Assembly (NCBI GenBank): GCA_003551215.1
Contig: PUMD01000133.1
Span: forward strand, 2,494-66,493
Source: Clostridia bacterium
GTDB taxonomy: Bacteria > Bacillota > Sulfobacillia > SLMV01
Direction: 5' to 3'
Length of the DNA: 64,000 bases
Below, piece by piece: positions 3,131-51,140 of the stretch. Every line of letters starts with the position of its first letter. The stretch's first letter is position 1. The notes below the pieces were generated by a model. It did not search any database, had not been told where the DNA came from, and was given only the letters and a program-made list of their open reading frames with translations. Made by a program: the position numbers and the translations under genes.

Positions 3131-3247
3131 GATAAGCTGTCAAATGGGTAATGGTAATTTTGAATTTGCAGATAAAGATTGCGTCCGTCCGGACTGCGGC
3201 GGACAGTCCGACATCACTGTGACATTGGACAGAGGAGGAGATCGTGG

Positions 3248-5323
3248 GTGAATGGCTATAAGGTGGAGGACATCCGGAACATCGCTCTAATCTCGCATAG
3301 CGGAGCTGGTAAAACCAGCCTCGCTGAGACCATGCTTTTCCTTTCGGGGGGCCGTTCTCGCTGGGGCAGAGTTGACGAGGGCAGCAGCATACTGGACCAT
3401 GACCCGGAGGAAAAGGAAAGGCAGGTCAGCATCAACACAGCTATTGCTCCAGTGAAGTGGAATGGCTGCAAGATCAACCTGCTTGATACGCCAGGATATT
3501 TTGATTTCGTGGGAGAAGTTAAAGTGGCGCTTCGCGCTGCTGACGTTGCACTGGTTACTGTCGAGGGAGTCTCGGGGGTAGAGGTCGGTACCGAGCTGGT
3601 CTGGGGCTATACCGACGAGCTCAATCTGCCGCGCGTAGTGTTTGTCAACAAACTGGACCGGGAGAATGCGGATTTTTTCAAGGTGCTGGGGCAGCTGCGC
3701 GAGCACTTTGATAAAAAGCTGGTCCCCCTCCAGATTCCCATAGGTAAAGAGGACAATTTTTCAGGTATCGTCGACCTGCTTTCTGAGAGCGCCTTTTCCT
3801 TTGATGAGGAGGGGAATTCAGAACAAATTGCTATACCTGATGATTTGGCCGAGGACGTCGAGCAATATCGAGAGGAGCTGCTCGATGCTGTTGTAGAGCG
3901 CGATGATGAATTGCTGCTGATGTACCTCGAAGGGGAGGAGCTTGATCCGGAGGCTCTCAAAAAGGTTCTGAAAGAGGCGGTTGTTGAACAGGATATTGTT
4001 CCTGTTCTTTGTGGCTCGGCTATGACTGCCACCGGCATTACCGCTTTTATGGACTTTGTCGTCGACTATCTTCCTGCTCCATCTGAGCTGCCTGCCATTG
4101 GAGGAGAAGACCCGGAGAACAATGATGAGACAACCCGTGATCCTTCAGTCGAGGAGTCCTTCAGCGGGTTGGCATTCAAGACGATGACCGACCCCTATGT
4201 GGGCAGACTTACCCTGACCCGTATTTACTCAGGCCGGATCACTCCCGGGATGCGGATTCTTAACTCGGTAAAGGGAGAATCCGAGGAAATAGACCGCATA
4301 TTCGTACCAAAAGGGGATGACCAGGAAGAACTGTCTGAAGCTGTCGCCGGCGAGATTGTAGCTATTCCCAAGCTGCAGGTAAGCACTACCGGTGATACCC
4401 TGTGCAGCCTGGATGCTCCGATCGTCTATCCCAGTATTGAGTTCCCCGACCCGGTGTATTCAGTGGCAGTCCGTCCCGAAAGCAGAGGCGATGAGGATAA
4501 ACTGGGTTCTGGTCTGAGCCGCGTGGCCGAAGAGGATCCGACCTTCCATACTGAGAGAAACAGTGAGACTAATGAGCAAATTGTCTCCGGTATGGGAGAG
4601 ATGCATGTATCAGTCATGACTCAGCGGTTGAAGCGGAAATTTGGTGTCAGTCTCAAGTTGTCACCACCGAAGATTGCCTACCGGGAGACAATACGGAGAG
4701 CATCTGAGGCCCACTATCGTCATAAGAAGCAAAGCGGAGGGCGTGGCCAGTTTGGTGAGGTTGACATTCGCCTTGAGCCCATGGAGCGCGGTGGCGGTTT
4801 CGAGTTTGTTGATGACATTTTCGGTGGTGCTGTGCCCAGGCAGTTTATACCAGCGGTGGAAAAAGGTATAATCGAGTCCATGCAGGAGGGGCCTTTGGCT
4901 GGCTATCCGGTGACTGACATAAGGGCAACGCTGTTTGATGGCGGATATCATCCAGTGGACTCCTCGGAGATGGCATTCAAGATAGCTGCCTCCAGAGCTC
5001 TGACACAGGCCTTTATGGATGCCGCACCCGTTTTGCTGGAGCCCATTGTGCAAGTAACTGTGCAGGTTCCGGAAGAGTTTATGGGTGATGTCATCGGGGA
5101 TCTGAACCGAAAGCGTGGCCAGATCTTGGGAATGGAACCACGCGGCAAGTTCCAGGTGATCAAGGCCAGGGCTCCAGCTGCTGAGATGGTACGTTATGCC
5201 ATAGACCTGCGCTCTATAACTCAGGGACGCGGAACGTTTACCTCAGAGTTTGCTGCCTACGAAATGGTACCGGAACAGGAAGCCGAAAAAGTCATTGAAC
5301 AGGCCCAAAGCGAAGAAGAGTAG
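3248..5323 (+). CDS. Elongation factor G paralog (EF-G2-like translational GTPase)
   Basis: G1 motif AHSGAGKTSL, DTPGYFDF, NKLDR; full EF-G five-domain length (about 690 aa), but not the canonical fusA N-terminus. GTG start 7 nt after GGAGGAG. Confidence 0.7.
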   Translation: MNGYKVEDIRNIALISHSGAGKTSLAETMLFLSGGRSRWGRVDEGSSILDHDPEEKERQVSINTAIAPVKWNGCKINLLDTPGYFDFVGEVKVALRAADVALVTVEGVSGVEVGTELVWGYTDELNLPRVVFVNKLDRENADFFKVLGQLREHFDKKLVPLQIPIGKEDNFSGIVDLLSESAFSFDEEGNSEQIAIPDDLAEDVEQYREELLDAVVERDDELLLMYLEGEELDPEALKKVLKEAVVEQDIVPVLCGSAMTATGITAFMDFVVDYLPAPSELPAIGGEDPENNDETTRDPSVEESFSGLAFKTMTDPYVGRLTLTRIYSGRITPGMRILNSVKGESEEIDRIFVPKGDDQEELSEAVAGEIVAIPKLQVSTTGDTLCSLDAPIVYPSIEFPDPVYSVAVRPESRGDEDKLGSGLSRVAEEDPTFHTERNSETNEQIVSGMGEMHVSVMTQRLKRKFGVSLKLSPPKIAYRETIRRASEAHYRHKKQSGGRGQFGEVDIRLEPMERGGGFEFVDDIFGGAVPRQFIPAVEKGIIESMQEGPLAGYPVTDIRATLFDGGYHPVDSSEMAFKIAASRALTQAFMDAAPVLLEPIVQVTVQVPEEFMGDVIGDLNRKRGQILGMEPRGKFQVIKARAPAAEMVRYAIDLRSITQGRGTFTSEFAAYEMVPEQEAEKVIEQAQSEEE

Positions 5324-5346
5324 CCAGAGAAACTGCATTTCGAAGT

Positions 5347-5387
5347 GGGCACTGAGGGGGAAAACAAAGGACTCTTCAGTGCCCTTT
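5347..5387. terminator. Bidirectional rho-independent terminator between the EF-G paralog and the GGDEF gene
   Basis: Perfect 9-bp stem GGGCACTGA/TCAGTGCCC with a 19-nt loop, followed by TTTGTCTCC. Sits between the convergent genes. Confidence 0.5.
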
Positions 5388-6494
5388 GTCTCCTCCCTTG
5401 ATACGCCCATTTTCGGCCTTGCTTCTGTACATATCCATATCAGCCCGGTGAAAGAAGGTATGCAGGTCATCGTTTTGGCGAATCTCAGCAGTTCCGAGGC
5501 TGCAGCTTGCCGCCGGCGTGAAATCCTGCAATGCGGTTGAAATGGCCCTGTCGATCCTCTTTGCCATCTCCTCTGCCTCATCTTTGGGGGTGTGGGGCAG
5601 CAGTACGGCGAATTCATCGCCTCCCCACCTGGCCAGTGTGTCATCTGTGCGTATTGTTTGCTTGGTGATTCGGGCGAACTGTTTGAGCACTTTGTCACCG
5701 GCGAGATGGCCCAGGGAATCATTTATCTTCTTCAGATCATCAATGTCGAGAATCAGAATAGAGAGGGGAGAGCCCTCCTCCTTGGCCCTTTTCATCCACT
5801 GTCGTGCCTCCTGGTTGAATTTTCTGCGATTGTATAGGCCGGTAAGCTCATCTCGGGTCCAGGTCTGCATCAATTCGGAATTTTGCGCAAACTGAAGACG
5901 GGCCAGCCTTTCTTTTTGGTAAGAGCCTGCAGTCGTAATTACGACTGCCAGGTTGAGATAAATGGCTGCTGCAAGAAGCTGCATACTGTCGGTACCGCCG
6001 ACCATCCAGGTCGCCAGACCCAGAAAACCCAGCGTCAGCGCAAGGCAAACCGCTGTCCTGTAAATCCAGCGATTGGGCACAAGAGAAAACGCAAGAATCA
6101 GTGCCAGAACGCCGAAAGACTGCATGATAACATCGGGCGACTCGTAAACGGCAAAAATAGCGAGGAATGTAATGGAGGCCAATACCTTGTAGCCTGTTAA
6201 GACAGACACCAGTGTACAGTAATCATTGAGGTTATCCAACTGCAAATGCAGGGCAACAACCAGAACAAGGAATGACGAGCGCAGAAAAAGAGTGAAGCGG
6301 AAGATACGCAGGCTTTCTATGACGAAGTAGTCAGCGATTGAGAACAGAAAAAATAGAGAGCCAAATATCAAAAGGAGAGCCTTGGTATAATCGAAGATGC
6401 GGTGAAATTCGCGATTCCGGTACCGATCTTCCCGTCTGTGATCTGCCAGCTCCGGCAGCGGGAATCGGAACAGTCTGCTGTCAGGTGAAGCCAT
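5376..6494 (-). CDS. Membrane-anchored GGDEF diguanylate cyclase
   Basis: About 6 N-terminal transmembrane helices, then a GGDEF domain (LAGDKVL...RWGGDEFAVLL). ATG at 6494 has a GGAGGT RBS 7 nt upstream; the listed ORF extends to GTG 6524. Confidence 0.7.
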   Translation of the reverse strand: MASPDSRLFRFPLPELADHRREDRYRNREFHRIFDYTKALLLIFGSLFFLFSIADYFVIESLRIFRFTLFLRSSFLVLVVALHLQLDNLNDYCTLVSVLTGYKVLASITFLAIFAVYESPDVIMQSFGVLALILAFSLVPNRWIYRTAVCLALTLGFLGLATWMVGGTDSMQLLAAAIYLNLAVVITTAGSYQKERLARLQFAQNSELMQTWTRDELTGLYNRRKFNQEARQWMKRAKEEGSPLSILILDIDDLKKINDSLGHLAGDKVLKQFARITKQTIRTDDTLARWGGDEFAVLLPHTPKDEAEEMAKRIDRAISTALQDFTPAASCSLGTAEIRQNDDLHTFFHRADMDMYRSKAENGRIKGGDKGH

Positions 6495-9071: not shown

Positions 9072-11669
9072 GTGTTTGGAAGATATTCAGCAAGAGCACA
9101 TAAGGTGATAGTGTTGGCGCAAGAAGAAGCGCGGCGCCTGAATTACAACTACGTGGGAACCGAGCACCTTCTTCTAGGTCTCATCAGAGAGGGAGGGGGT
9201 GTGGCCGCACGCACCCTGGAGAACGTAGGAATTGATCTGGAGCAGGTGCGTGAAGAGGTTGAAGATATCATTGGAGAGGGCAATACTCCGGTTTCCGGTC
9301 AGATCGGCTTCACACCCCGCGCCAAGAAGGTTGCACTGGAGCTTGCTCCCGAGGAGGCCCGTCGTATGGGCAATAACTACGTGGGAACAGAACATCTCCT
9401 ATTGGGTCTCATAAAGGAAGGAGAGGGAGTGGCGGCGAAAGTCCTGGAGAAGATGGGAGCCGATCTGGATGAGGTCAGGTCCGAGGTAATGGAGCTGCTC
9501 GGGGGACAGGGACAGGAGGCTCCTTCCGGTGGAGAACAACGCCAGCGCAAGTCTGGCAAAACCCCCGCACTGGACACTTATGGTCGGGATCTCATCGAGA
9601 TGGCGAAGGAAGACAAACTGGATCCTGTCATAGGTCGTGAAGCCGAGGTTCAGCGGGTCATTCAGATTCTGAGTCGTAGAACCAAGAATAACCCGGTGCT
9701 GATTGGCGAACCTGGAGTAGGGAAGACTGCCATAGTTGAGGGGTTAGCCCAGCGTATAGTCGAGGGTAATGTACCCGAAATGCTCAAGGGGTGCCGCATC
9801 ATAGGCCTTGATATGGGAAGCCTGGTGGCCGGTTCCAAGTACCGCGGTGAGTTCGAAGAAAGACTGAAGCGAGTCATGGGCGAGATAAAGGAAGCCGGCG
9901 ACGTCATCCTCTTTATCGATGAGATGCATACGATTGTTGGAGCCGGCGCTGCAGAGGGTGCCATCGATGCGTCCAGCATAATAAAGCCCGCCCTGACCCG
10001 CGGCGAGCTGCAGGCCATAGGTGCCACCACTATAGATGAGTACCGAAAGCACGTTGAGAAGGATGCAGCCCTGGAGCGACGCTTCCAGCCGATAATGGTG
10101 GAGGAGCCCTCCGTGGTGGAGACGGTGCAAATACTGCAAGGGCTGCGAGACAAGTATGAGGCCCATCACCGGGTGGAAATCACCGATGAGGCGATAAAGG
10201 CGGCTACAAAGCTTAGTAACCGCTACGTCACTGACCGTTTCCTTCCGGATAAGGCGATTGATCTGGTGGATGAGGCGGCTTCGCGCGTGCGGCTGGATGC
10301 ATTTGTTGCGCCCGCTGGCCTTAAGGAGCTGGAGGATCAGCTGGAAGAAGTGCGAACTGAGAAGGAAGCAGCAGTGCAGGGACAGGAATTTGAAAAGGCG
10401 GCTGAACTACGCGATCAGGAGCGCAAAATAAAGGAGCAGTTGAAGGAACGGAAAAAGGAATGGGAAAAGGAACAGATGACCGATAAATGCGTTGTGTCCG
10501 AGGAAGAGGTAGCGTCTATAGTCTCCGACTGGACAGGTGTACCGGTTTCAAGACTGACAGAGACGGAAGCAGAACGTCTCATGAAGCTTGAAGAAGTGCT
10601 GCACGAACGTGTGGTGTCCCAGCAGGAGGCTGTCAACGCCGTATCGCGAGCTGTGAGACGAGGGCGCACCGGCCTGAAGGATCCGAGAAGGCCAATAGGC
10701 TCCTTTATCTTCCTGGGACCAACCGGGGTGGGTAAGACAGAGCTCAGCAAGGCCCTGGCGGAGGCTCTGTTTGGTGACGAGGACGCCATGGTAACCATCG
10801 ATATGTCCGAGTATCAAGAACGTCACACCGTCTCTAGGTTGTTTGGAGCGCCTCCTGGATATGTGGGTTATGAGGAGGGCGGCCAGCTTACCGAGGCCAT
10901 CAGGCGGCAGCCCTACAGCGTGGTGTTGTTTGACGAAATAGAGAAAGCTCATCCCGAAGTATTCAACACCCTGCTGCAGGTGCTCGAAGAAGGACGTCTT
11001 ACCGAAGCCCAGGGTCGTACGGTAGATTTCCGCAACACAGTGATTATAATGACCTCAAATGCGGGTGCAGAGCTAATTCGTCGGGAGACCGCGGTCGGCT
11101 TCCGCGCTGGTGATGAAGATGGTCCGATGGACTACGAGAGAATGAAGGACAAGATCATGGAGGAAGTCAAAAAGACCTTCCGACCGGAGTTTCTCAACCG
11201 GGTTGACGATATCATAGTGTTCCACGCTCTGACGCAGGAAGACCTGCAGCAGATACTGGAGCTGATGCTGCGGGAAGTACAGGAGCGTCTTGGAGACAAG
11301 ATTCATCTGGCACTGACGGATGCAGCCAAGGAAGTCGTGCTGGATGAAGGCTATGATCCGGTGTATGGAGCCCGTCCGCTCCGTCGGTCCATTGTTCGCC
11401 TTCTCGAGGATCCACTTTCGGATGCCATTTTGGAAGACAGATTTGCAGAAGGTGACCGCGTGGTAGTGGACGCCTCCGACGGCAGCGTAGAGCTGTTGAG
11501 CTGGGAAGAGGCTCAAAAGAGACAGTTAGATGCGGAACTGCTTCCCCTTCCCAAGGAGTCAGAAACCGAGACAGAAGGACAACAGGCAACCTCAAGCGAG
11601 TGCGAGGAGGAAGGTGTAGACTCCGGACCGCGAGCTGCTGACTCCGATAGGCCAGCTGATGAGGGTTGA
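9072..11669 (+). CDS. clpC: ATP-dependent Clp protease ATP-binding subunit ClpC, with a roughly 55-aa acidic C-terminal extension
   Basis: Two Clp-N repeats, two AAA+ modules (GEPGVGKT; GPTGVGKT) and a UVR motif. GTG start after AAGGAGGGAAGG. Confidence 0.9.
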
Positions 11670-17306: not shown

Positions 17307-18053
17307 ATGAAGACCTTGCAGGTACAGCTAATCCGGTACACCGAAGATCCGGACAAGACTGTGGCCATGGCGGCAAGACTTTGCTACTCGCCATCCACGA
17401 TAGATCAGCTGAGTGATAACCTCGACGAGGAGGCTGAGGTTGGCCGCATAATCAAGATGCTGGTTGACCGCGGCCATCTGTCACCATTTGAACACGCCTA
17501 TTTCACCGTGGGAATAGAAGGGCTGAGCCGAGTGGCATCTCATCAGTTGGTGCGGTCTCGCATTGCAAGCTATTCTCAGCAGTCGCAGCGGTACATAGAG
17601 CACAGGGACTTTGACTATGTTGTACCGCCCAGTATCGCCGCCAGCAGCGAACTGCAGGAGGAGTTTGATGCGCATTTGCGCCGGTCGCGACAGCTTTACC
17701 GTCGCCTTCGCGAGGGGGGTGTTGCTAAAGAGGATGCCCGGTTTGTGCTGCCGCAGGCCACCGCTAGCAGCATAGTCATGTCGAAGAATGCACGTGCGTG
17801 GCTCGAATGGATCCAGCTACGAACCTGCAACCGCTCCCAGTGGGAAATACGGCAGCTGGCACGGAGTATTACTCAGCTGTTGAAAGAAGTAGCGCCTCAT
17901 ATTTTCGCTTTCGCAGGACCCCCCTGTGTGAGTCAGGGGTTTTGCCGGGAGGGCGATGATAGTTGCAGCCGAATTGATGGAATCGACGTTGATTCTTTGC
18001 CTTTCAAGACCGCCACAGTCAGGCAGCAGGACAGCACCTGCTCTGAGGAGTGA
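17307..18053 (+). CDS. thyX: Flavin-dependent thymidylate synthase ThyX
   Basis: ThyX motif RHRIASYSQQSQRY. Confidence 0.8.
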   Translation: MKTLQVQLIRYTEDPDKTVAMAARLCYSPSTIDQLSDNLDEEAEVGRIIKMLVDRGHLSPFEHAYFTVGIEGLSRVASHQLVRSRIASYSQQSQRYIEHRDFDYVVPPSIAASSELQEEFDAHLRRSRQLYRRLREGGVAKEDARFVLPQATASSIVMSKNARAWLEWIQLRTCNRSQWEIRQLARSITQLLKEVAPHIFAFAGPPCVSQGFCREGDDSCSRIDGIDVDSLPFKTATVRQQDSTCSEE

Positions 18054-19151: not shown

Positions 19152-19805
19152 GTGAGCACGTTTCCTCAGCCTGATCTTTATCCGACGGAATACGAGGCAA
19201 TGGGTGACGAGGATCTGGTAGAAGTTGCTCGGTCGGGTAGCAAAAGAGCCCTGGATTTCTTGATGCTGAAATACAGACATTTTGTGAAAGCCAAAGCAAG
19301 AAGCTACTTCCTGGTTGGTGCAGATCGCGAGGACATAATCCAGGAAGGGATGATAGGTCTTTACAAGGCCGTACGAGACTTTCGTCCAGAGAAGCTGTCG
19401 TCGTTCAAGGTATTTGCAGAACTGTGCATACAGAGGCAGATCATAACTGCCATAAAGACGGCCACGCGCCAAAAACATATACCGCTGAACTCCTATGTCT
19501 CACTGAATAAACCCATCTATGACGAAGATTCTGATCGCACGCTGATGGATGTTTTAGCCGGAAGTCATATATCCAATCCCGAACAGCTCATTATCTCGCG
19601 CGAGGAGTTCAACCAGATTGAAAAGAGAATGGGCGAGATGCTAAGCGAGCTGGAATGGCAGGTCCTTATGGCTTACCTGGACGGCAAGTCATATCAGGAG
19701 ATTGCCGACCAGATAGGCCGGCACGTCAAATCGGTAGACAACGCTTTACAGAGGGTAAAGCGGAAGCTTGAGCAGTATCTGCTGGAGGCGGAGGACAAAA
19801 GGTAG
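19152..19805 (+). CDS. sigH: Sporulation/transition-state sigma factor SigH
   Basis: Sigma-70 regions 2 and 4 (DIIQEGMIGLYKAVRDF; SYQEIADQIGRHVKSVDNALQR). GTG start after GGAGGAG. Confidence 0.85.
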   Translation: MSTFPQPDLYPTEYEAMGDEDLVEVARSGSKRALDFLMLKYRHFVKAKARSYFLVGADREDIIQEGMIGLYKAVRDFRPEKLSSFKVFAELCIQRQIITAIKTATRQKHIPLNSYVSLNKPIYDEDSDRTLMDVLAGSHISNPEQLIISREEFNQIEKRMGEMLSELEWQVLMAYLDGKSYQEIADQIGRHVKSVDNALQRVKRKLEQYLLEAEDKR

Positions 19806-19885
19806 GATGATCTTCTGCAGGACTATACATAAAGGCCAAGTTGTCGCCGGGCGATAGCGTTGGGTCAAGATATTATTTCAACCTG

Positions 19886-19914
19886 GCAGGGCGGGGTTTC
19901 CGTCCTGCTTTTTT
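19886..19914 (+). terminator. Rho-independent terminator of sigH
   Basis: 9-bp stem GCAGGGCGG/CCGTCCTGC (one G-U pair), loop GGTTT, followed by TTTTTT. Confidence 0.65.
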
Positions 19915-19975: not shown

Positions 19976-20446
19976 TTACACTACCTGCCCGCCGTTTCTG
20001 CTGATCGCCTGACGCACCCGGGGCAGCTGCGGTCTTGATGTGAATACGATCAGCAGACGCGGCTCGGTTGGTAGGGGGCGGTGGGGGGTTGTCAGACAAT
20101 AAATGGAGGCCAGGGTGGCGGTTATAAGTGCGAAGGAACCTCCCACCGCGAGGTAGGCTGGATATCTGCCGCCTGCGAATAGAGGGGCGAAAAAAGCCAG
20201 AGGAAGGAACCCGGCATGATGAAGATAAAGCAGAGTGATGCCCAGCAGTGCCCCTAGTAGCCCGCCCACGGCTGTTTTTTGCGCTTCACCGCGGCTGAGG
20301 AACAGCTGCTGGGATATCAATCTCTGGGTGTCCTCTGTCGGACCAAGAACCTGTCCGCTGCCCCACTGCTGAGATTCAATCTCCTCAAGCGCGGCGAGTG
20401 CCTGTTCCTCGGTGGCAAAAGTGGCTGCCAGCTTACTCATTTTCAT
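19976..20446 (-). CDS. YflT/general-stress-protein-17M-like domain membrane protein
   Basis: N-terminal KLAATFATEEQALAALEEI resembles the YflT (DUF1269) domain. Followed by two transmembrane helices. GGGAGGA RBS. The 3' part may be over-extended. Confidence 0.4.
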   Translation of the reverse strand: MKMSKLAATFATEEQALAALEEIESQQWGSGQVLGPTEDTQRLISQQLFLSRGEAQKTAVGGLLGALLGITLLYLHHAGFLPLAFFAPLFAGGRYPAYLAVGGSFALITATLASIYCLTTPHRPLPTEPRLLIVFTSRPQLPRVRQAISRNGGQVV

Positions 20447-21656
20447 CCTCCCGTTTTCTAAGAAGTCTCACCAGTTGATTGGTCAGTTGCTCAGGAACCT
20501 GGTCTGGTCCACCTATTACCCAGCCGCGGTTGAATCTGCTGACCAGGTGGGAGGTCGCTTGCGGCTGCAGCTGTCTCAGAAGCCTTTGTGTGGGCTCTGG
20601 TAGGTTGCCCTGTCTGAGCCATAGCAGGGGGCCAGCGTTCCCCCGGTGGGCCAAAGCGGCGGAAACCATCGCCTGCAAAGGACTCTCCTCATCTGCGAAA
20701 ACTGGGCTCAATCCAGGGCCCGAAGCTGCCCATCCCATATCGCGGGGGATTGCATCCAGCCACCAGCGCAGCTGGTCACCGCTGTCGGAGTACATTGCGA
20801 AAGAGGCAGCAAGTTCAGCTGCGTCCTCACCTGGTATTCGCTGAACATGTCCAAAATTGGCCAAGTCCCTGATCGCATCAGGTCCGATCGCGCCGGCAGG
20901 AGCCATAACATATATGAAGGCACCGCGAGGTCTGAGGTCTAACGCGCGCTTGGTTGCTTCAGGTAGCGAATCCTGATGGCTGAAAAGGATGGGCTGTCCC
21001 CTGCGAGCGGCCCAGAAGGCTCCAGTAGCTGCCAGCTGAGGGTCATCGACGGGTACTATAACTGTCTCGCTGCGATGATCACCCAGAAGAATCGAAAGGT
21101 AGTGATCTATTTTCTCGGCTAGTTCTTCTGGTGATGATGCTTTCAACCAGCGGAAACGGAATCCTTCGTCCTGCAGGGTACGTTGCACACCCGACGGAAG
21201 GTCCCCACAAAGCAATACCTGTGCGCCAGCATCACGCAGTATGCCCAGGGGGTTCAAGCGTCTTATCTCTCTCAGTACCAACTCAGGAAGGGGGGCGGAG
21301 GGTATGGGGATTACCGGCGCATCTACTGGTAGAGCGCTCAGCCGTGCAGCAGCAGCTGCGGTCCGCCAGTCATCATCAGGTACCAGTACTACGGCATTGG
21401 GTCTGGCCGAGCCTCCCGTTGCTGGGTATATGGTCTGTGATACGGTCAGCCCTACTGTCAATGGATCATCGCAGGGTATCTGTCGAATAGTCCCGAACTC
21501 CCTTTGGGCTCTGACGGATTGCCTGCTCGCATCTGGATACTGATAGGCAGCGGGAAGCAGGTAAGCGGCAAGAATTGCCGCCAAAAGTAATCCACCGGCA
21601 AGATAACACGCTATTTTCAGCTTGCGTTGCGACTTCTGGTAATCATTCGAGGGCAT
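20433..21656 (-). CDS. Membrane-anchored protein with three CWB2-like cell-wall-binding repeats
   Basis: N-terminal transmembrane anchor. Three repeats of the pattern vvLVpdDd..aAaAarLSA...aPvipi / QPILFS..SLPEATKRALDL...FIYVMAPAGAIGPDAIRDL..VQRIPGEDAAELAA, matching the CWB2 (PF04122-type) consensus. AGGAGGA RBS. Confidence 0.55.
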   Translation of the reverse strand: MPSNDYQKSQRKLKIACYLAGGLLLAAILAAYLLPAAYQYPDASRQSVRAQREFGTIRQIPCDDPLTVGLTVSQTIYPATGGSARPNAVVLVPDDDWRTAAAAARLSALPVDAPVIPIPSAPLPELVLREIRRLNPLGILRDAGAQVLLCGDLPSGVQRTLQDEGFRFRWLKASSPEELAEKIDHYLSILLGDHRSETVIVPVDDPQLAATGAFWAARRGQPILFSHQDSLPEATKRALDLRPRGAFIYVMAPAGAIGPDAIRDLANFGHVQRIPGEDAAELAASFAMYSDSGDQLRWWLDAIPRDMGWAASGPGLSPVFADEESPLQAMVSAALAHRGNAGPLLWLRQGNLPEPTQRLLRQLQPQATSHLVSRFNRGWVIGGPDQVPEQLTNQLVRLLRKREDENE

Positions 21657-21668
21657 AGGGTAATCCTC

Positions 21669-23558
21669 CTAAAATCTATCATACTGCGGCAGTGCGGCTG
21701 CCCAATAGAGACTGAGCGGGTAAGTGGTCAGCAGGGCGAATGCAGCACCAATTGAAGCGCTTCCCCACCAGGCAGTACGTCCCACAACCGGCGGCCAGCT
21801 CAGATACAGGTACTCCAGCAGCCACACTGCAAGAGAAAAGGCCAAAGCTGCTGAGGTCACCATGGACAGGGTTACCGGCCAGCGAGCCCCCAGGTCTTTG
21901 CTGTAGCTGATACTGGAATCCATGCTCGGATCCAGAACAAATATCACCACAGCAGCGGCAACCGCATAGCCGACCATCAGCGACCATATTCCTGGATTAC
22001 CCAGCCAAAATATCGAACCGGTCGTCATAAGCAATGCTGCACCACCGCCCTTGATTACTAGGCGGGTGACTATCATCAGCGCCGAGGTTACCCCCACCAC
22101 CACGACTGCCCCAGCGACGGCCTGAGTAAGGGGCGTCCGACTCGAACTATCAGCCGCTACCAAAGGGCGCTCTCCCCGGTAGCTCAGGTAGTACCCCAGC
22201 AGACCGAGAGGTCCGGTGGTGAGCACCGCCGTCACCCAGGCCAGCCGCTTCACCTGACCCACGGTTCTTCTTCGCATTGTCGAGTGACACCAGGTCCATA
22301 CCCCTCCCAGCCAGCTGGCCGTCATCCACAGTAAAAGGAGGGATTCCAGGCCACTGCTGGCCCGGGATGTTTGCGTCAGATAGGGTCCTGCCGTATTTAT
22401 GTAATCTATGCGAGCCTGCAGGGGCCAGCTGATGATTGCCTCCCCACCTGCGATCCATGTGTAGTTGAAAGGAGCTCCGGCAGAGCTATCCGTCCAGCTT
22501 GGACGTATGCTCCATAGATAAGTCTCCACTGATGGGCAGATGGCTTCAGATTGAGTCAGCAGGGTCGGACCTGCCCATATGTCGGAAAATACCTGAGCAG
22601 AAGCTATCAGGTGCTCCGGGTATTCCGGGTTACCCACCAGATGTACGTGGTCTTTGTGGGGTGTGTTTTCACTGTACCAGCCGAAATGAGTTCCTCTATC
22701 ATAATACCGCGCCATTGCCAGGGCATGCTGCTCCGGGTTACGCCCGGCAACCCTGGTGATCTGTCCGATTTTGCCCAGTTCTTCTACCACCGCCGTACCG
22801 GCTATGTGAAGGGGACTGGCGAGGTATATATTCAATTTCTTATCCCCAAGCTGTTTCTGCAGGCTCTGAAGACGGGAGACCACGTCCTTGCTTGGCCCGT
22901 TGCTGTCTATCGGGTAAACATGATCTGCCGTACGGGACAGCCAGGTAGCCAGAGGTAGCGCATATCTGGAATCCTCACTGCTTACCAGGATGACCCGTTC
23001 GTCATTTACTGTCGAATTCAGCTCCGAAACCAGCTCGTCGACGGCAAGGGCAAGGGGGGGACCTGAGCTGTCCACACACCGAATGCGGAACCTTCTGGCC
23101 AGCTTCGTCCTGATTTGCTGAGAGAACTCGCCGACAAGGATGATCTGCTTTCTCCGTTGTCCGATTCCTCGGGGCGACAGCTGTTTCATCTCGGCGAGCA
23201 CCTCTTTTGAAGGCTCCTCATCTGCGTCCAGAAGCACAAGTCCTGCTCCTACGGGTGGCGCAGTGAGCCGCAAAGCGTAAAGGGCAGCCAGTGGGTCTGC
23301 AGCGGGAGCCACCACCAGCCCGGGGACAGCACCACTGTGGGCGTACCGCACACGGACGGCCTGCAGGCTCAGGTCGGTGATGTTGTCCCCCGATAGTCTC
23401 GTGGTGTGTGCCGTCAGGGGCACAGCATCTTCCGCATAATCGCCTGAAGCAGATCTTCTCATGCACATCACGTGATCATATGTCAGGTAAAAGGGAGTGG
23501 CCAGAAGAACAACTATAAGGCCATACAGAATTATTCTTGCTGCCGTTTTCACCCGCAT
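21669..23558 (-). CDS. Large membrane protein: N-terminal anchor, three CWB2-like repeats, C-terminal roughly 6-TM domain of unknown function
   Basis: Repeats GLVVAPAADPLAALYALRLTAPP.., ERVILVSSEDSRYALPLATWLS.., HLVGNPEYPEHLIASAQVF.. Hydrophobic C-terminal third. Weak RBS; start ATG 23558 or GTG 23561. Confidence 0.5.
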   Translation of the reverse strand: MRVKTAARIILYGLIVVLLATPFYLTYDHVMCMRRSASGDYAEDAVPLTAHTTRLSGDNITDLSLQAVRVRYAHSGAVPGLVVAPAADPLAALYALRLTAPPVGAGLVLLDADEEPSKEVLAEMKQLSPRGIGQRRKQIILVGEFSQQIRTKLARRFRIRCVDSSGPPLALAVDELVSELNSTVNDERVILVSSEDSRYALPLATWLSRTADHVYPIDSNGPSKDVVSRLQSLQKQLGDKKLNIYLASPLHIAGTAVVEELGKIGQITRVAGRNPEQHALAMARYYDRGTHFGWYSENTPHKDHVHLVGNPEYPEHLIASAQVFSDIWAGPTLLTQSEAICPSVETYLWSIRPSWTDSSAGAPFNYTWIAGGEAIISWPLQARIDYINTAGPYLTQTSRASSGLESLLLLWMTASWLGGVWTWCHSTMRRRTVGQVKRLAWVTAVLTTGPLGLLGYYLSYRGERPLVAADSSSRTPLTQAVAGAVVVVGVTSALMIVTRLVIKGGGAALLMTTGSIFWLGNPGIWSLMVGYAVAAAVVIFVLDPSMDSSISYSKDLGARWPVTLSMVTSAALAFSLAVWLLEYLYLSWPPVVGRTAWWGSASIGAAFALLTTYPLSLYWAAALPQYDRF

Positions 23559-23986
23559 CACCCGGGAAACAGTGTTCCCGAAATGACGGATTATATTATC
23601 GGCGGTTAACCTGACTTCTGCTGGTGTTAGCGTAAAGTCTTGGCAGGTAGAGTGAGGTTAGACGTAAAATAAGGACCTCACCCGGCGTTGCAAATGTTGG
23701 GTATGCTGCATTGCAGCTGACAGCATCTGTATTATGTGTTCATCCTCGAGTCCGGCATGGTACACTTAGCTGACTGGACTTGGTGAGGTTCGTTTTTGCC
23801 CAGGCTCATTGTATCATCGAGGTCAGACCCGTGCAGCCTTGCGCCTTGAGATTCAACCAAAAGCGGGTGGACACAAAGGAGATCGACTGTCGCCTGCTGA
23901 ACCTAGCTGATTGCGGACGTCAATGATCATCTTTGGAGTGTCCCCATCGTGGGGGACACCATTTCAGCATATGAGGAGCTGATCAA

Positions 23987-26392: not shown

Positions 26393-27112
26393 ATGTTTTC
26401 CTCAGGCAGCATTGCCAGGTGGGCAAAAATAATGCTGGTCGGGCTTCTGTTTGGCCTGGTTATTTGGTATTGTGCGCCTCCCCTTATGCTCTGGTTTGTA
26501 CCCACTCGGGTTCCCGAAGAAATAGCCAGACACTCCGAGGAACAGCTGCCAGACTCCTTCAACAAGATATCAAGGCATCAGGCGGTCAGTCCACTGCAGT
26601 GGAGGGTAACCCACATAGGACATTTTGCCGATGAATTGCATCCCCGCTATCAGGTGGTGTATCTTCAGAACCGTCTGACCGGCAGGGCAGAGGTCTCCGT
26701 CGATTACGTCCAGGGGAGACATCAGCTTTTTCCCTGGCTACAGCCGGTTTCATTTACTGCAGCCTTCTTTCTGTTTATATACCTGGCTGCCCCCAGATTA
26801 CTGGGGCAGCCCTGTCCACACTGCGGCAGCAAACCCTTTTCACTCATCAGTGAAGAGCCGCTGAAACAGGAACCTGGTCCAGCGTTTGCTACTTACCGGG
26901 GCCACTACAGGTGTTCAAAGTGTGGGCTGAACAAGATAACGGTGTACACTGGTTCACGCAAGAGAAATATCATGATGTCCGGGGATCTTGTGCGGGAAAT
27001 GGGTTTCGGGTCGTTGTTTTATGATGAGTCAGATGAGGAAGACCTCTCAGCTTGGGGGCACATTAGCTGGTTGCGAAAGAGTGAAGACGAGGAGTGGTTT
27101 GAGGACTCCTGA
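26393..27112 (+). CDS. Hypothetical membrane protein with a cytoplasmic zinc ribbon and acidic C-terminal tail
   Basis: Two transmembrane segments. CPHCGS...CSKCG zinc-ribbon pair. Tail DESDEEDLSAW...EDEEWFEDS. RBS GGGGGAAGGA. No family recognised. Confidence 0.4.
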   Translation: MFSSGSIARWAKIMLVGLLFGLVIWYCAPPLMLWFVPTRVPEEIARHSEEQLPDSFNKISRHQAVSPLQWRVTHIGHFADELHPRYQVVYLQNRLTGRAEVSVDYVQGRHQLFPWLQPVSFTAAFFLFIYLAAPRLLGQPCPHCGSKPFSLISEEPLKQEPGPAFATYRGHYRCSKCGLNKITVYTGSRKRNIMMSGDLVREMGFGSLFYDESDEEDLSAWGHISWLRKSEDEEWFEDS

Positions 27113-28239: not shown

Positions 28240-28536
28240 TTGACCACCGGAACCAAGCTCCATCAGACCATCAGCCAGCTGAAGGCTGCAGCCGGTAACC
28301 TGCAGAGTTTCGCTCTGGATACAGATGATCCGCAGGCGAAGCAGATGTTCACCAGTGCATCCCAGCAGCTGGATAAGATAGTCGATCAGGTGAGTGCCCG
28401 CACCAACTATGTGGAGCAGCAGGAACCAGCGTACAAGATGACCCAGATGGCTCAGTCTGCTCAGCAGCAGAATCAGGGACAAGGCCAGGGACAGGGCCAG
28501 CGGCAAGGACGACCAAGACAGAATAGGCGCCGCTGA
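28240..28536 (+). CDS. DUF1657-family small protein (sporulation-associated) with a Gln/Gly-repeat tail
   Basis: MTTGTKLHQTISQLKAAAGNLQSFALDTDDPQAKQMF...QEPAY matches the DUF1657 pattern. TTG start 7 nt after GGAGGAGGTGA. Tail QGQGQGQGQRQGRPRQNRRR. Confidence 0.5.
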   Translation: MTTGTKLHQTISQLKAAAGNLQSFALDTDDPQAKQMFTSASQQLDKIVDQVSARTNYVEQQEPAYKMTQMAQSAQQQNQGQGQGQGQRQGRPRQNRRR

Positions 28537-38754: not shown

Positions 38755-41700
38755 ATGAGCAAACAGCGCGCTCATGTTTTGGTGTGTGCGGGAGCAGGCT
38801 GCATATCTTCCGGTTGCCGGGAGACGGCGGCTGAACTCAGCAACGCACTCAGAGAACACGGCCTGGAAGATGAGATTCGCGTGGTGGAGACCGGGTGCAT
38901 GGGGCCATGCGATCTGGGGCCTGTGGTGGTAGTTTATCCCGAAGGCGTGCTTTATCAGCAGGTTAAGCCGGAAGATGCTCAACTGATTGCCGAAGAACAT
39001 CTGCTCAAGGGACGGGTAGTCGAAGAGTTAACCTATCGATTGCCCGGCGTCGGGGAATTCATCCCGAGCCAGGAAGAGATGCCGTTTTTTGGTCACCAAA
39101 ACCGGATTGCCCTGCGCAACGCGGGCTTGATTGATCCGGATTCCATAGAAGAGTACATAGCCCGCGATGGTTACGCCGGCTTGGCCAAAGTGCTTTCGTC
39201 CATGCAGCCAGGAGAGGTAATCGACGCTATAAAAGAATCTGGCCTGCGGGGGCGCGGGGGTGCTGGTTTTCCCACCGGCCTCAAGTGGCAGTTTACCAAA
39301 GATGCTGAAGGGGATACCAAATACGTAGTGTGCAACGCCGATGAGGGAGACCCAGGAGCGTTCATGGACCGCAGTATTCTGGAGGGTGATCCCCACAGCA
39401 TCTTGGAAGCGATGGCAATTGCCGGGTACGCGGTCGGTGCCGGTCAGGGTTACGTTTATGTGCGTGCGGAATACCCGCTGGCTGTCGAGCGTCTCCGGCG
39501 GGCAATAGCCAAAGCTCGAGAATACGGACTGCTCGGTGAAAACATCTTCAGCGCGGATTTCTGCTTTGACATCGACATACGAGTAGGCGCCGGGGCGTTC
39601 GTGTGTGGAGAGGAAACTGCACTTTTGGCCTCTATAGAGGGTCGGACCGGACAGCCCAGACCCCGTCCGCCGTTTCCGGCGAATGAAGGCCTGTGGGGCA
39701 AACCTACGCTCCTTAACAACGTGGAGACCTTTGCCAACGTGGCTCCCATAATTCTCAACGGTGCAGACTGGTTCGCCGGAATAGGTACTGAGGACAGCGC
39801 TGGAACCAAGGTGTTTGCCCTTGCCGGTGATGTTATCAATACCGGTCTTGTTGAGGTTCCCATGGGCACTCCGCTGAGCGATATTGTCTTTGACATAGGC
39901 GGGGGAGTACCAGATGGAAGGAAATTCAAAGCTGCTCAGACCGGCGGCCCTTCGGGAGGATGTATCCCCGCGGAATATCTGAATACTCCGGTTGATTACG
40001 AGTCGCTGACAGAACTGGGCACCATTATGGGGTCAGGCGGCCTGATAATTGTTGATGAGGACACCTGTATGCCCGACTTCGCCAAGTTCTTCTTGGAATT
40101 TGTTCAGGATGAGTCTTGCGGTAAGTGTCATCCGTGTCGTATAGGTACCAAGCGCATGCTGGAAATACTTGAGCGCATAACTGCCGGTGAAGGAGAAGAA
40201 GGGGATATCGATCGCCTGGTTGAGCTGGGGGAGCAGATAAAAGAGCTGGCTCTCTGCGGGCTAGGTCAGTCTGCCCCCAATCCGGTGCTGACCACCATCG
40301 AGTACTTCCGTGAAGAGTACGAGGCACACGTAAGGGACAAGGAATGTCCCGCCTCGGTGTGCGCCTCTCTGTTTACTTCTCCCTGTCAGAACGCCTGCCC
40401 GGCAGATGTGGACGTCCCACTTTACATCGACCTGGTGCGGCAGGGTCGTTTCGAAGAAGCCTACCGTGTGATCAAGACTGAGATGCCGCTGCCTGGAGTC
40501 TGCGGATACGTTTGCAACCATCCCTGCGAGGGTAAGTGTCAGCGGGTGCAGATCGATGAATCGATTGCCATCAGATCCCTGAAGAGATTTGCCACCGATG
40601 CCGTACTGCAGGACAGCGGTGAGCTGCCCGCCCTCGAACGTCTGGCAGAGCGGGAAGGGAAAGTGGCTGTTGTGGGTTCCGGTCCAGCCGGGCTCTCTGC
40701 GGCTCACTTTTTGGCGCGAGTCGGATACTCGGTCACCGTTTTCGAAGCCATGCCGGTATTGGGCGGTACTCTGGCTGCGGGAATCCCTGAGTATCGCTTG
40801 CCAGAAGATGTTCTGGAAGCGGAGATTGAAACGGTGAGCAAGCTGGGAGTCGAGTTCAGAACCGGCGTCTGTGTGGGTAGCGACATTACGCTTGATGAGC
40901 TCAAACAACAGGGTTATGAGGCCATATTCCTGGGAGTTGGTGCTCACAAGAGCCGACGGCTGGGTATACCCGGCGAGGATCTCGACGGCGTGACCCACAG
41001 CATCGAGTTTCTGCGTGACGTAAACGTAGGTCAGCAGACCGACCTCAGTGGTGCTTCCGTGGCGGTAATCGGCGGTGGTAATGCAGCAGTCGATGCAGCC
41101 CGTACGGCTGGTCGTTTGGGGGCCCGAGATGTGAAAATCGTCTACCGGCGCCGAGAAGAAGATATGCCGGCGCTGGATGAGGAAATAGAAGATGCCCTGG
41201 CCGAAGGCATAGAGCTGATAACTCTGGCTAACCCGACGAAGGTGATAGGCCGTGACGGTAGAGTAAGAACCCTCAAATGCCAGCAAATGCAGCTGGGCGA
41301 ATACGATCAGAGCGCCCGGCCCCGACCGATTCCTGCAGAAGGCTCCACCTTCGACCTGGACGTGGATGTGGTGATCGTGGCCATCAGCCAGCAGCCAGAA
41401 GGTGAGTTCACTCTGGAGGGTAAACAGGTGGAGACCACCGATTGGGATACTTTCCCGGTGGATGAAGACACTCTGGCCACCAACGTTCGGGGAGTATTCG
41501 CAGGCGGTGACTGCGTAACCGGCCCCGATACTGTGATCGAAGCCGTTGCAGCTGGTAAGAGGGCGGCCGCGGCCATTGACGTATATCTCGGAGGCGACGG
41601 ACAGATCGTACGCAAGCCTGCCATGGATCGAGTGATCGGTCACGAACTGCTGGAAACCAAGACCGAGCGCGTGGCCATGCCGAAAGTTGCCGCTGACGGG

Positions 41701-41823
41701 CGAAAGGGATTCTCGGTTGTCGAGTTAGGGTATTCCCCAGAGCAAGCAGTGGCGGAGGCCAGAAGATGCCTCAGGTGCGATGTTGAAGACGTGTCTCAGT
41801 CGTCGGGCGAGGCTGCGAATTAA
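38755..41823 (+). CDS. hydB: NuoF-like flavoprotein subunit (HydB/HndC-like) fused to a GltD/NfnB-like NAD(P)H oxidoreductase domain
   Basis: N-terminal thioredoxin-like 2Fe-2S (CAGAGC...CMGPC). NuoF FMN/NADH site ([16 protein letters not shown]; [12 protein letters not shown]). Two ferredoxin-like CxxCxxC clusters. Then a GltD-type module ([19 protein letters not shown]...; [17 protein letters not shown]). 1022 aa single ORF. RBS GGGGGAG. Confidence 0.8.
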
Positions 41824-41842
41824 ATGACCGGAGGTGAGTGCA

Positions 41843-47017: not shown

Positions 47018-47043
47018 CAGCCCTACAGAAAGGAGGAGGTGAC

Positions 47044-51137: not shown

Positions 51138-51140
51138 GAG

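Follow-up and report, generated by a model that had tools for sequence, protein, structure and literature searches.

A three-gene membrane cassette with CWB2-type ectodomains and a divergent DUF4396 domain, possibly linked to metals, beside sigH in a Clostridia genome

The stretch of DNA analyzed here, 64,000 nucleotides from the genome of a Clostridia bacterium (contig PUMD01000133.1) and referred to below as the window, carries three minus-strand genes in the order C-B-A, tightly coupled and convergent with sigH (Table 1). All three ORFs were found where a preliminary description of the DNA had placed them. In the database, A is represented by P0001, a 100% identical protein of 629 aa that starts from the ATG at 23558. 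For C, the second ATG (20440) is probably the true start, because a GGGAGG precedes it by 6 nt and P0054, which is 99% identical, is 154 aa in length; C would then overlap B by 8 nt, instead of the 14 nt proposed in the preliminary description. The ribosome-binding site of B, AGGAGG, overlaps the stop codon of A and lies 8 nt before the ATG of B. By its T-run, the GC-rich hairpin between the convergent genes is read as terminating sigH and may serve the minus-strand operon in the same way.

Table 1. Features of the cassette locus (positions in the window; residue numbers are those of the encoded protein).
Feature	Position	Strand	Description
sigH	19152-19805	+	NCBIfam SigH, 382.6 bits against a cut-off of 208
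GC-rich hairpin	19885-19909	.	between convergent sigH and C, followed by a T-run on the + strand (terminator scan)
gene C	19976-20446	-	156 aa as longest ORF; probably 154 aa from ATG 20440
gene B	20433-21656	-	407 aa; N-terminal membrane anchor and triple CWB2-like ectodomain; paralog of the A ectodomain
gene A	21669-23561	-	630 aa from GTG 23561, 629 aa from ATG 23558; N-terminal membrane anchor, triple CWB2-like ectodomain and C-terminal six-helix DUF4396-type membrane domain
A, C-terminal membrane domain	21693-22352	-	helices 404-430, 436-461, 477-505, 523-546, 553-586 and 596-623; divergent DUF4396, first two helices PLDc_N-like
A, triple CWB2-like ectodomain	22392-23405	-	residues ~53-390; membrane-tethered at both ends
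ArsR/SmtB-family regulator remnant	23691-23750	-	last 20 codons, reading LEDEHIIQMLSAAMQHTQHL
DUF1657 gene	28240-28536		~4.7 kb from the cassette

Up to and including sigH, the window shows the usual Firmicute order: mcsA/mcsB-type genes, clpC, ispDF, cysS, thyX, rlmB and sigH. Beyond sigH the preliminary description had reported a synteny break, with the operon standing in for the block that contains nusG; the break is real, but nothing shows that the cassette "replaced" that block. No look-alike of nusG, rplK, rpoB or rpoC was found among the larger ORFs of the 64 kb, the scan covering ORFs above the size of rpmG and secE. A mis-assembled join, which had been raised as a possible source of the arrangement, is excluded because an independent Clostridia MAG (L001) has the same order, cysS-thyX-rlmB-sigH followed by C-B-A and then rnhC-WYL. 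In L002 and L003 about 5.5 kb separate sigH from the cassette, the contexts of the cassette in L004-L014 are unrelated, and among the compared loci adjacency to sigH is limited to the window and L001. Judged from these gene orders, the break on the sigH side is a lineage-level arrangement common to related genomes.

The ectodomains of A and B are related to each other (BLASTP E = 7e-14; hhalign of the B family against the A family, E = 3e-67 over 346 columns), and their assignment to CWB2 (PF04122) in the preliminary description is supported by family profiles, though not by the Pfam model itself: B scores 23.6 bits, under the cut-off of 24.9, and A has no PF04122 match, whereas the A-family profile reaches the solved CWB2 proteins Cwp8 (E = 6e-15), Cwp6 (2e-12) and SlpA-HMW, and the B-family profile reaches Cwp6 (E = 2.8e-13) and SlpA-HMW. 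Distant relatives do pass the CWB2 model (P0004, 49.6 bits; P0007, 69.5 bits). The cassette ectodomains have three tandem repeats and the triple-module prism fold, and by all these comparisons they are identified as true CWB2 triple modules. B has one N-terminal hydrophobic helix ahead of its ectodomain. In the AF2 model of A (pLDDT 85.1), an N-terminal membrane helix, three alpha/beta units and six membrane helices follow one another, and short linkers join the ectodomain to the membrane on either side; the triple module is thus held against the outer membrane face at both ends. The CWB2 proteins of C. difficile (SlpA HMW subunit, Cwp6 and Cwp8; PDB 7ACY, 5J72 and 5J6Q) are only 11-15% identical to the cassette module, and, as secreted proteins associated with the wall, they carry functional or S-layer domains, whereas A is doubly anchored, is fused to a six-helix DUF4396 domain and is paired with an anchored paralog and a small hairpin protein. 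Unlike them, too, the cassette occurs in archaea, and its main family has an invariant set of His residues.

The six-helix topology of the C-terminal domain of A was likewise confirmed, but the domain is not an orphan, because 35 of the 42 relatives retrieved by a profile of the A C-terminus match PF14342 (DUF4396; best E = 3.4e-41). Six of the relatives match PLDc_N, and one of the DUF4396 relatives also matches three multicopper-oxidase families. Searched with Pfam, A of the window has no PF14342 match and the relative P0003, at 26.5 bits, stays below the cut-off of 27; the membrane domain has no significant match to solved structures. On the profile evidence we assign it to DUF4396 as a divergent member. 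Stand-alone members of DUF4396, a family with no described function, likewise have a six-helix domain with a PLDc_N-like first hairpin. Those sampled are ~245-300 aa in length, and their third helix contains an HCVAGD-type motif. At this place the cassette subfamily reads RPxWxQxxxAT, and neither motif is present in the window clade; in the alignment the HC(V)AGD-type motif is absent from A of the window, which reads RTPLTQAVAGA. Multicopper oxidases occur as partners of stand-alone members or fused to them: a multicopper oxidase gene begins 4 nt after one canonical DUF4396 gene, and a MerR gene lies alongside.

Protein C has a split ferredoxin-like domain, probably cytoplasmic, which is interrupted by a glycine-zipper two-helix membrane hairpin. 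The earlier label "YflT-like" may be tenable as a remote relationship, in that the C-family profile reaches two proteins bearing PF11181 (E = 8e-11 and 2.4e-7), but C has no Pfam YflT (PF11181) match. DUF1269 (PF06897) matches two of five C members in Pfam (best E = 0.098), and some C relatives are labeled DUF1269 in UniRef. Shared with YflT/DUF1269 are the initial beta-alpha-beta element and the glycine-zipper membrane helices; C differs in having no direct Pfam match at usable E-values and in the splitting of its ferredoxin-like fold by the hairpin. In some lineages the C hairpin is fused onto A: residues 38-135 of C from the window align with the N-terminus of the L013 A protein, which has 724 aa (E = 2.7e-6), and where A is long and sequence extends beyond B, a separate C was not found.

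The order A-B-C is found in more than 40 loci with a GC content of 27-69%, including Haloarchaea. The cassette loci comprise L001-L004, L007-L014 and 36 further metagenome loci of the same GC range, and in the latter A precedes B wherever upstream sequence exists; orthologs of A are present in L001-L004, L007-L014 and L018-L049. The haloarchaeal cassette, in a 4.8-Mb NCBI genome, has HVO/TRASH/DUF7521-type neighbors, and relatives of C bear the names Haloarcula, Halosimplex, Halobacterium, Natrinema and Halobonum. The window has the A, B, C order together with translational coupling, which places it in the cassette family. The constant order, the same lineage groups in the A and B subtrees, and the fusion of the C hairpin onto A show by comparison that A, B and C belong together. 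We infer that they form one complex, and A-B-C appears to be a previously undescribed three-protein membrane cassette of bacteria and Haloarchaea.

This distribution bears on the model put forward in the preliminary description, in which A and B are CWB2 wall-binding proteins gripping a secondary wall polymer and the membrane domain of A ties the wall to the membrane. The CWB2 nature of the ectodomains speaks for the model, and the C. difficile module binds the anionic polymer PSII (Willing 2015 and Usenik 2017, as cited in PMC8881574). The idea of an S-layer-style tether specific to Clostridia is nevertheless not supported, given the presence of the cassette in Haloarchaea and beside genes for an RND adaptor and an outer-membrane factor, and metal genes or DUF1657 as recurrent neighbors instead of secA2 or S-layer genes. 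Haloarchaea, to our knowledge, have neither peptidoglycan nor teichoic-type polymers, and their possession of the cassette argues against polymer binding as the general role of the family. The A ectodomain, lying on the membrane by its two short linkers, has no reach into the wall; no S-layer, secA2 or polymer-synthesis gene was found in the 64-kb window, and SLH accounts for one of the 100 ORFs that flank related loci, as counted over the 25 commonest families. The model also leaves unexplained an invariant Met/His signature and the recurrent metal-gene neighbors, and we consider it unlikely.

The signature was counted outside the window clade, which has four members (the window and L001-L003), in 22 A and 24 B proteins. 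In A, Met is present in 22/22 at window positions 496, 524, 568, 575, 579 and 584, in 21/22 at 547 and 576, and in 20/22 at 590. In B, all 24 proteins have His at 108, 218, 316, 337 and 341; to these five invariant columns are added four in which at least 20 of the 24 have His, among them 194 (23/24) and 270 (22/24). The window proteins keep M496 and M547, two of the nine best-conserved Met columns, and H194, H270 and H337, three of the nine best-conserved His columns; L001-L003 are equally poor in Met and His, with other residues at most signature positions. These alignments show that nearly all the invariant Met and His residues have been substituted in the clade, so that a polymer role would be possible for the window copy. 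In the B tree (NJ, no bootstrap) the window clade is basal to all other B proteins; taken by itself, this tree would also allow the His set to have been gained later instead of lost.

The window clade is also informative upstream of A. In L001 and L003, intact ArsR-family genes with the motif ELCVCD immediately precede A in the same orientation (HTH_5, 64.6 and 62.8 bits), whereas the window has no intact ArsR-family regulator next to the operon and retains the last 20 codons only. This remnant was recognized by tblastn, with 11/20 identities (E ~1e-3 against all loci and 7e-8 against the region alone), and by a frameshift-tolerant alignment which scores 74 against 29.1 +/- 3.5 for shuffles (z = 12.6) and does not extend further. 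It indicates that the window genome deleted an ArsR-type regulator gene which two close relatives have kept. The arrangement in L001 and L003 resembles cadCA of S. aureus pI258, a metal-resistance operon under CadC/ArsR control, in its ArsR/SmtB-family gene, an N-terminal Cys and ELCVCD; it differs in that the genes regulated do not encode a P-type ATPase and in the reduction of the window regulator to 20 codons. No operator was identified, and ArsR-family proteins can also sense non-metal signals.

The loss of the regulator gene, added to that of the Met/His signature, might suggest that the window copy is a decaying relic with no function left. This is very improbable: none of the three ORFs is interrupted, their ribosome-binding sites are good and their translation is coupled. 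At least four other genomes retain the ligand-poor form at full length (38-48% identity), many of its structural columns being conserved, and it therefore seems to be under continued selection.

The recurrent neighbors of the cassette are Csp/DUF326, multicopper oxidases, YHS, HMA P-type ATPases, CopB and regulators of the TRASH, MerR and ArsR types. A multicopper oxidase and Csp adjoin it in L007; Csp, a TRASH regulator, ferritin, and HMA and P-type ATPase genes are near it in L010; genes for a Cus/Czc-type RND efflux-pump adaptor, an outer-membrane factor and BlaI/BlaR-type proteins are near it in L013; and YHS and DUF326/Csp are the immediate upstream genes in L033 and L043. Among 100 flanking ORFs of 18 loci, as raw counts with no background set, there are three E1-E2 ATPases, two HMA, three YHS, two DUF305 and one CopB. 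In the only paper found to mention DUF4396, the family is located at a heavy-metal-resistance island (PMC7760498). Many loci, however, have no metal gene nearby (the window, L002, L004, L008 and L012).

In low-GC Bacillota the immediate neighbor is usually DUF1657 (L004, L007, L008, L014, L020, L022 and L025), which raises the question of whether the cassette of Bacillota is a sporulation or spore-envelope module, supplying copper to coat oxidases or serving a structural role in the spore membrane, with the proximity of sigH and DUF1657 as its reflection. The DUF1657 gene of the window, a weak Coat_F match at one of the seven loci (L014), and the multicopper oxidase and Csp beside the cassette of L007 would fit such a module; in B. 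subtilis, Csp3 has been proposed as the source of Cu(I) for CotA, the laccase of the spore coat (PMC9484137). Yet DUF1657 is a family with no assigned function, no sporulation-type promoter was identified upstream of A, adjacency to sigH is not kept outside the window and L001, and the cassette is equally kept in non-sporulating Haloarchaea and high-GC bacteria. A spore-specific role therefore seems improbable to us.

We favor, at a probability of about 0.55, the reading that the cassette is a metal-linked membrane complex in the main family, and that the window clade represents a diverged copy which no longer has the ancestral mechanism and is intact with a changed ligand or role. A metal function for the family is inferred from residues and neighbors. 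The main-family complex would handle copper or another soft metal at the membrane: the invariant His residues of B would capture the metal outside the cell, the invariant Met residues of A, among them a helix-5 MxxxM pair and a Met ladder along helix 6, would bind Cu(I) or conduct it across the membrane, C would supply a cytoplasmic acceptor or regulatory domain, and expression would be under metal-sensing regulators. The window copy would no longer handle metal in this way and would persist as an intact complex, for which another metal or an envelope polymer could serve as ligand. Copper systems of the CopC-CopD and B. subtilis YcnJ types combine a His- or Met-rich extracytoplasmic metal-binding domain with a polytopic membrane domain and have metal-sensing regulators nearby. 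No sequence or fold relationship to them was found; the likeness is a functional analogy drawn from the residue signature and neighbors of the main family, and the window copy is without the signature.

A narrower reading, which we put forward tentatively and hold to be rather doubtful as it stands, is that A-B-C is an unrecognized copper-handling system of Bacillota, other bacteria and Haloarchaea, in which B, a repurposed CWB2 triple module, captures the metal outside the cell by its His sites and the Met-lined DUF4396 domain moves or holds Cu(I), working with Csp and multicopper oxidases, the window clade being a ligand-null offshoot with another role. Were this copper-handling reading true, it would provide the first function for DUF4396, and the CWB2 fold would not be only an anchor for wall polymers.

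Downstream of sigH lie three minus-strand open reading frames, designated A, B and C and together referred to as the cassette; they are present exactly as the three-gene unit of the preliminary description. P0001, the database copy of A, is 629 aa long and starts at the ATG at 23558. An AGGAGG sequence overlaps the stop codon of A, 8 nt before the ATG of B, and GGGAGG is found 6 nt ahead of the second ATG of C; the positions of these ribosome-binding sites show A, B and C to be translationally coupled. Given this spacing, and the length of P0054 (a database protein of 154 aa, 99% identical to C), the start of C is most likely at 20440, which would make it a protein of 154 aa. Measured from the likely start, the overlap of C with B is 8 nt and not the 14 nt first reported. 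A sigma-70 scan upstream of A gave nothing convincing (a TATAAT about 70 nt upstream, with a weak -35), and no operator common to A and the arsR homologues came out of inverted-repeat searches of their upstream DNA. Horizontal transfer was considered on the basis of composition and rejected: the GC content of the cassette (~0.57) is only slightly above that of its flanks (~0.53), and there are no tRNA genes in the 64-kb window.

Features of the window, with positions, strand and evidence or description
Feature	Position	Strand	Evidence or description
EF-G-type GTPase gene	3179-5323	+	full-length, 714 aa
thyX-like ORF	17307-18053	+	between cysS and rlmB; label is a reading of the sequence
sigH	19152-19805	+	NCBIfam SigH equivalogs, up to 382.6 bits; certain
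Hairpin and T-run after sigH	19885-19909		terminator scan and sequence
Gene C	19976-20446	-	longest ORF, 156 aa
Gene B	20433-21656	-	ORF, 407 aa
Gene A	21669-23561	-	ORF, 630 aa
arsR remnant, last 20 codons	23691-23750	-	syntenic, between rnhC and A; 11/20 identities
Zinc-ribbon protein	26393-27112	+	239 aa
DUF1657 gene	~28240-28536	+	
NuoF/GltD-like fusion	38755-41823	+	1022 aa
[FeFe] hydrogenase	41834-43576		580 aa
Second hydrogenase-like gene	44522-46258		
Hydrogenase/kinase-domain protein	46948-49152	+	734 aa
Maturase genes	49728-52445		

The genes before sigH follow the usual Firmicute order (mcsA/mcsB-type genes, clpC, ispDF, cysS, thyX, rlmB); on the other side of the operon are genes for RNase HIII, a WYL regulator, a zinc-ribbon membrane protein, a metallo-beta-lactamase-fold protein and DUF1657, and farther on a PrsA-type isomerase, comEA, recD2 and a large [FeFe]-hydrogenase cluster. 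In Bacillus, sigH is followed by rpmG-secE-nusG-rplK, so the break in synteny is real; among the larger ORFs scanned over the 64 kb, a set above rpmG and secE in size, there was no likeness to nusG, rplK, rpoB or rpoC. What was described as the cassette “replacing” the nusG block is a lineage-level rearrangement and carries little weight. Mis-assembly can be rejected, because the order cysS-thyX-rlmB-sigH / C-B-A / rnhC-WYL is reproduced in L001, a locus from an independent Clostridia MAG in which sigH is 93% and A 48% identical to the genes of the window. Firmicutes often carry a T-box upstream of cysS; Rfam at gathering threshold gave zero matches in the 64 kb, including this region.

Several other genes of the window were recorded in passing. 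The thyX-like ORF has counterparts in the same place in L001 and L003, at 60-72% identity, and the 239-aa protein encoded just downstream of the WYL gene has hydrophobic segments and CxxC...CxxC zinc-ribbon motifs, with no family match above threshold. The EF-G-type gene stands outside a ribosomal-protein/str-operon context, flanked by a DUF4015 glycosyl-hydrolase-like gene and a GGDEF gene, and probably encodes an EF-G paralogue. The hydrogenase cluster also encodes, immediately upstream of the 580-aa [FeFe] hydrogenase, a 1022-aa fusion protein in which a NuoF-type FMN/NADH module (Complex1_51K, NADH_4Fe-4S) is linked to a GltD-like Fer4_20/Pyr_redox_2 module; the 734-aa protein, which combines an [FeFe]-hydrogenase large-subunit domain, an Fe-S motif, HisKA and HATPase_c, has the appearance of a histidine kinase joined to a hydrogenase-like sensor, and its gene adjoins the second hydrogenase-like gene and the maturase genes.

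Scanned directly against Pfam and NCBIfam, A, B and C gave nothing above threshold; for CWB2 (PF04122) there was no match to A, and B scored 23.6 bits against a cut-off of 24.9. Family profiles and distant relatives nevertheless support the three CWB2-like repeats that had been read in both proteins. The A-family profile (24 members) matches solved CWB2 proteins (Cwp8, E=6e-15; Cwp6, 2e-12; SlpA-HMW), as does the B-family profile (Cwp6, 2.8e-13), and two more distant database relatives exceed the Pfam threshold (P0004, 49.6 bits; P0007, 69.5 bits, with three repeats). In the AlphaFold2 model of A (pLDDT 85.1), a membrane helix at the N-terminus is followed by three alpha/beta units (53-390) and then by six membrane helices (404-623). 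The model recovers the triple CWB2 fold: in the PDB, Foldseek matched it significantly to the nine C. difficile CWB2 triple modules and to nothing else (best E=1.5e-9, target TM-score 0.71). The ectodomains of A and B are paralogous to each other, by BLASTP (E=7e-14) and by hhalign of the two family profiles (E=3e-67 over 346 columns), and are CWB2 modules by fold and profile, although they fail the Pfam threshold directly.

The six-helix C-terminal domain of A, previously noted as having no known function, is borne out by the model and belongs by profile to DUF4396 (PF14342). Among 1.84 billion representative proteins, a profile built on residues ~395-630 found 42 relatives: 35 match DUF4396 (best E=3.4e-41), six match PLDc_N over the first helical hairpin, and one also matches the three multicopper-oxidase families. 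Some two dozen are proteins of 546-757 aa with the DUF4396 domain C-terminal, which is the architecture of A. Here too the Pfam threshold was missed directly, and on these grounds the window proteins are outliers of both families. Stand-alone DUF4396 proteins have an HCVAGD-type motif in the third helix, whereas the cassette subfamily has RPxWxQxxxAT there. No solved structure resembling the membrane domain of A was found. The searchable literature gives no function for DUF4396, with one passing mention at a heavy-metal-resistance island, and contains no paper describing CWB2 fused to a polytopic membrane domain. One stand-alone DUF4396 gene is followed after 4 nt by a multicopper oxidase gene, with a MerR regulator alongside; in locus L017, the gene upstream of the stand-alone DUF4396 is no multicopper oxidase.

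The A-B-C order is kept well outside the sigH context. Cassettes are found in Clostridia/Bacillota MAGs (L001-L003), in other assemblies (L004, L007, L008, L012, L014), in L013 with RND efflux-adaptor and outer-membrane-factor genes alongside, and in two 4.8-Mb NCBI genomes (L009, L010) with HVO-type, TRASH and DUF7521 neighbours typical of Haloarchaea. A metagenome scan seeded on B added 36 further loci, ranging from 27% to 69% GC, with A before B wherever upstream sequence exists. In a neighbour-joining tree of A ectodomains and B proteins (no bootstrap), A and B are reciprocally monophyletic and the same lineage groups occur in each half, so that the duplication is old and A and B have been inherited together. 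The notion of an extremely rare family came from a word-indexed search, which gave only three or four relatives each for A and B, and was discarded when the exhaustive profile search and the metagenome scan found more.

Protein C shows no direct match to YflT, to which it had been likened; the resemblance is a remote one by family profile, and does not amount to membership. From 10 members, the C-family profile found 59 relatives, the two weakest informative matches bearing PF11181 (YflT; E=8e-11 and 2.4e-7); named relatives come from Haloarcula, Halosimplex, Halobacterium, Natrinema and Halobonum, and some carry the UniRef label DUF1269. In the AlphaFold2 model of C (pLDDT 77.9), a glycine-zipper two-helix hairpin interrupts a ferredoxin-like beta-alpha-beta / beta-alpha fold. 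Long variants of A (714-769 aa) occur in L011 (296-2569), L013 (6001-8175), L033, L041 and L047, with the hairpin of C fused at the N-terminus and the ferredoxin-like domain absent. The N-terminus of A from L013 matches the hairpin (BLASTP E=2.7e-6), and that from L011 is similar to it by eye; no separate C gene was found in the long-A loci where sequence downstream of B exists. As read from these sequences, the fusion argues that C packs against A. The basic residues beside the hairpin, and its place before the anchor helix of A in the fused proteins, point to a cytoplasmic location for the soluble part of C.

The window, L001, L002 and L003 (with the database protein P0015 for A) form one clade, the window clade; outside it, in what we call the main family, the proteins share a set of conserved residues (numbered on the window proteins) that is the clearest result of the analysis. 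In 22 A proteins, methionine is invariant at positions 496, 524, 568, 575, 579 and 584, and present in 21 at 547 and 576 and in 20 at 590; positions 524 and 528 make an MxxxM pair where helix 5 begins, and helical periodicity puts 568, 575 and 579 on the same side of helix 6. Among 24 B proteins, histidine is invariant at 108, 218, 316, 337 and 341, and present in 23 at 194, 22 at 270, 21 at 191 and 20 at 377, several of these being at the equivalent loop of each of the three repeats. As the columns are kept across archaea and bacteria, and from 27% to 69% GC, they are not compositional. Membrane methionines and extracytoplasmic histidines are ligand chemistry of copper transport and binding (Ctr1, CusA, CopC/CopD). 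We infer that this chemistry applies to the cassette columns, with CopC/CopD or YcnJ-type arrangements as the closest functional likeness, by analogy only.

Genes for metal handling are found around main-family cassettes: a multicopper oxidase and a Csp copper-storage protein in L007; Csp directly upstream, a TRASH-domain regulator, ferritin, and HMA and P-type ATPases in L010; a Cus/Czc-type RND adaptor and BlaI/BlaR-type genes in L013. The immediate upstream gene encodes YHS in L033 and DUF326/Csp in L043, and 100 flanking ORFs from 18 non-redundant metagenome loci include E1-E2 ATPase (three), HMA (two), YHS (three), DUF305 (two) and CopB (one). Two family-less flanking proteins in L013 could be further metal-binding partners: one of 455 aa (4599-5966) is His/Met-rich (19 His, 4.2% Met), and one of 151 aa (10090-10545) has a signal-peptide-like N-terminus and HAGHGAH and HEAHPNHPG stretches.

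Our overall reading, at a probability of roughly 0.55, is that the main family forms a complex handling copper or a soft metal, and that a different ligand or role has been adopted in the window clade. In this scheme, metal would be captured outside the cell by B and then bound, or passed through the membrane, by the Met-lined domain of A, while C would serve as a cytoplasmic acceptor or regulator. CWB2 is commonly treated as a wall-polymer anchor of Clostridia, and the preliminary description proposed a wall-membrane tether; we regard this as improbable, the ligand-null window clade being where it might apply. Such a tether is not supported: it is weakened by the archaeal members, by an A ectodomain tied to the membrane at both ends, and by the lack of wall or S-layer genes among the neighbours (no S-layer/secA2 locus was seen in the 64-kb window), and it is silent on the Met/His pattern. 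In low-GC Bacillota the immediate neighbour is DUF1657 (L004, L007, L008, L014, L020, L022, L025), and in B. subtilis Csp3 is proposed to supply Cu(I) to the spore-coat laccase CotA (PMC9484137); both suggest a spore-related role, which is compatible with metal handling but, given the cassette in Haloarchaea, cannot be general, and which we consider doubtful.

In the window clade, other residues stand at nearly all signature columns: M496 and M547 are the only signature methionines left in window A, H194, H270 and H337 are the histidines left in window B, and a TPxEGP motif adjoining the membrane has gone as well. In the A tree the clade groups with the low-GC Bacillota as neighbours, so that the Met/His loss would be derived; in the B tree it is basal, which may be due to long-branch attraction (neither tree has bootstrap values). 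L001 (4562-4975) and L003 (1808-2251) have an intact ArsR/SmtB-family gene immediately before A and in its orientation (HTH_5, 64.6 and 62.8 bits); the product has an ELCVCD motif and an N-terminal Cys and is closely similar to the Cd/Pb/Zn sensor CadC. The ArsR-type gene is gone from the window genome save for a 20-codon remnant: with frameshifts allowed, the alignment reaches a score of 74 (shuffles, 29.1 +/- 3.5) and extends to nothing beyond these C-terminal codons. That the window copy is itself a dead relic is very unlikely, as its ORFs are intact and coupled and the ligand-poor form is kept at 38-48% identity in several genomes, which indicates selection and not decay. The window also has a DUF1657 gene, 4.7 kb from the cassette and ~50% identical to those beside the cassette in the seven low-GC Bacillota loci, which suggests that it once adjoined the cassette and was separated from it by the rnhC-WYL-zinc-ribbon-MBL genes.

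The interest of the cassette rests on the family rather than on its position after sigH. The three-gene system, its archaeal spread, the Met/His signature and the ligand-null clade appear undescribed, the parts being already catalogued. Here the CWB2 triple module is joined to a membrane domain, has a duplicate as its obligate partner and occurs in archaea, all of which points to a second, undescribed use of the fold, and for DUF4396 the Met/His columns and copper-gene neighbours provide a first concrete, testable functional hypothesis. For the question, open in the literature (PMC9484137), of how copper is delivered to cytosolic Csp3 storage proteins and to spore-coat oxidases, the cassette, found beside Csp and multicopper-oxidase genes, is a candidate entry system. 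The window clade offers a natural control: it shares the scaffold and lacks the candidate ligands, and the genome studied here has lost the regulator as well.
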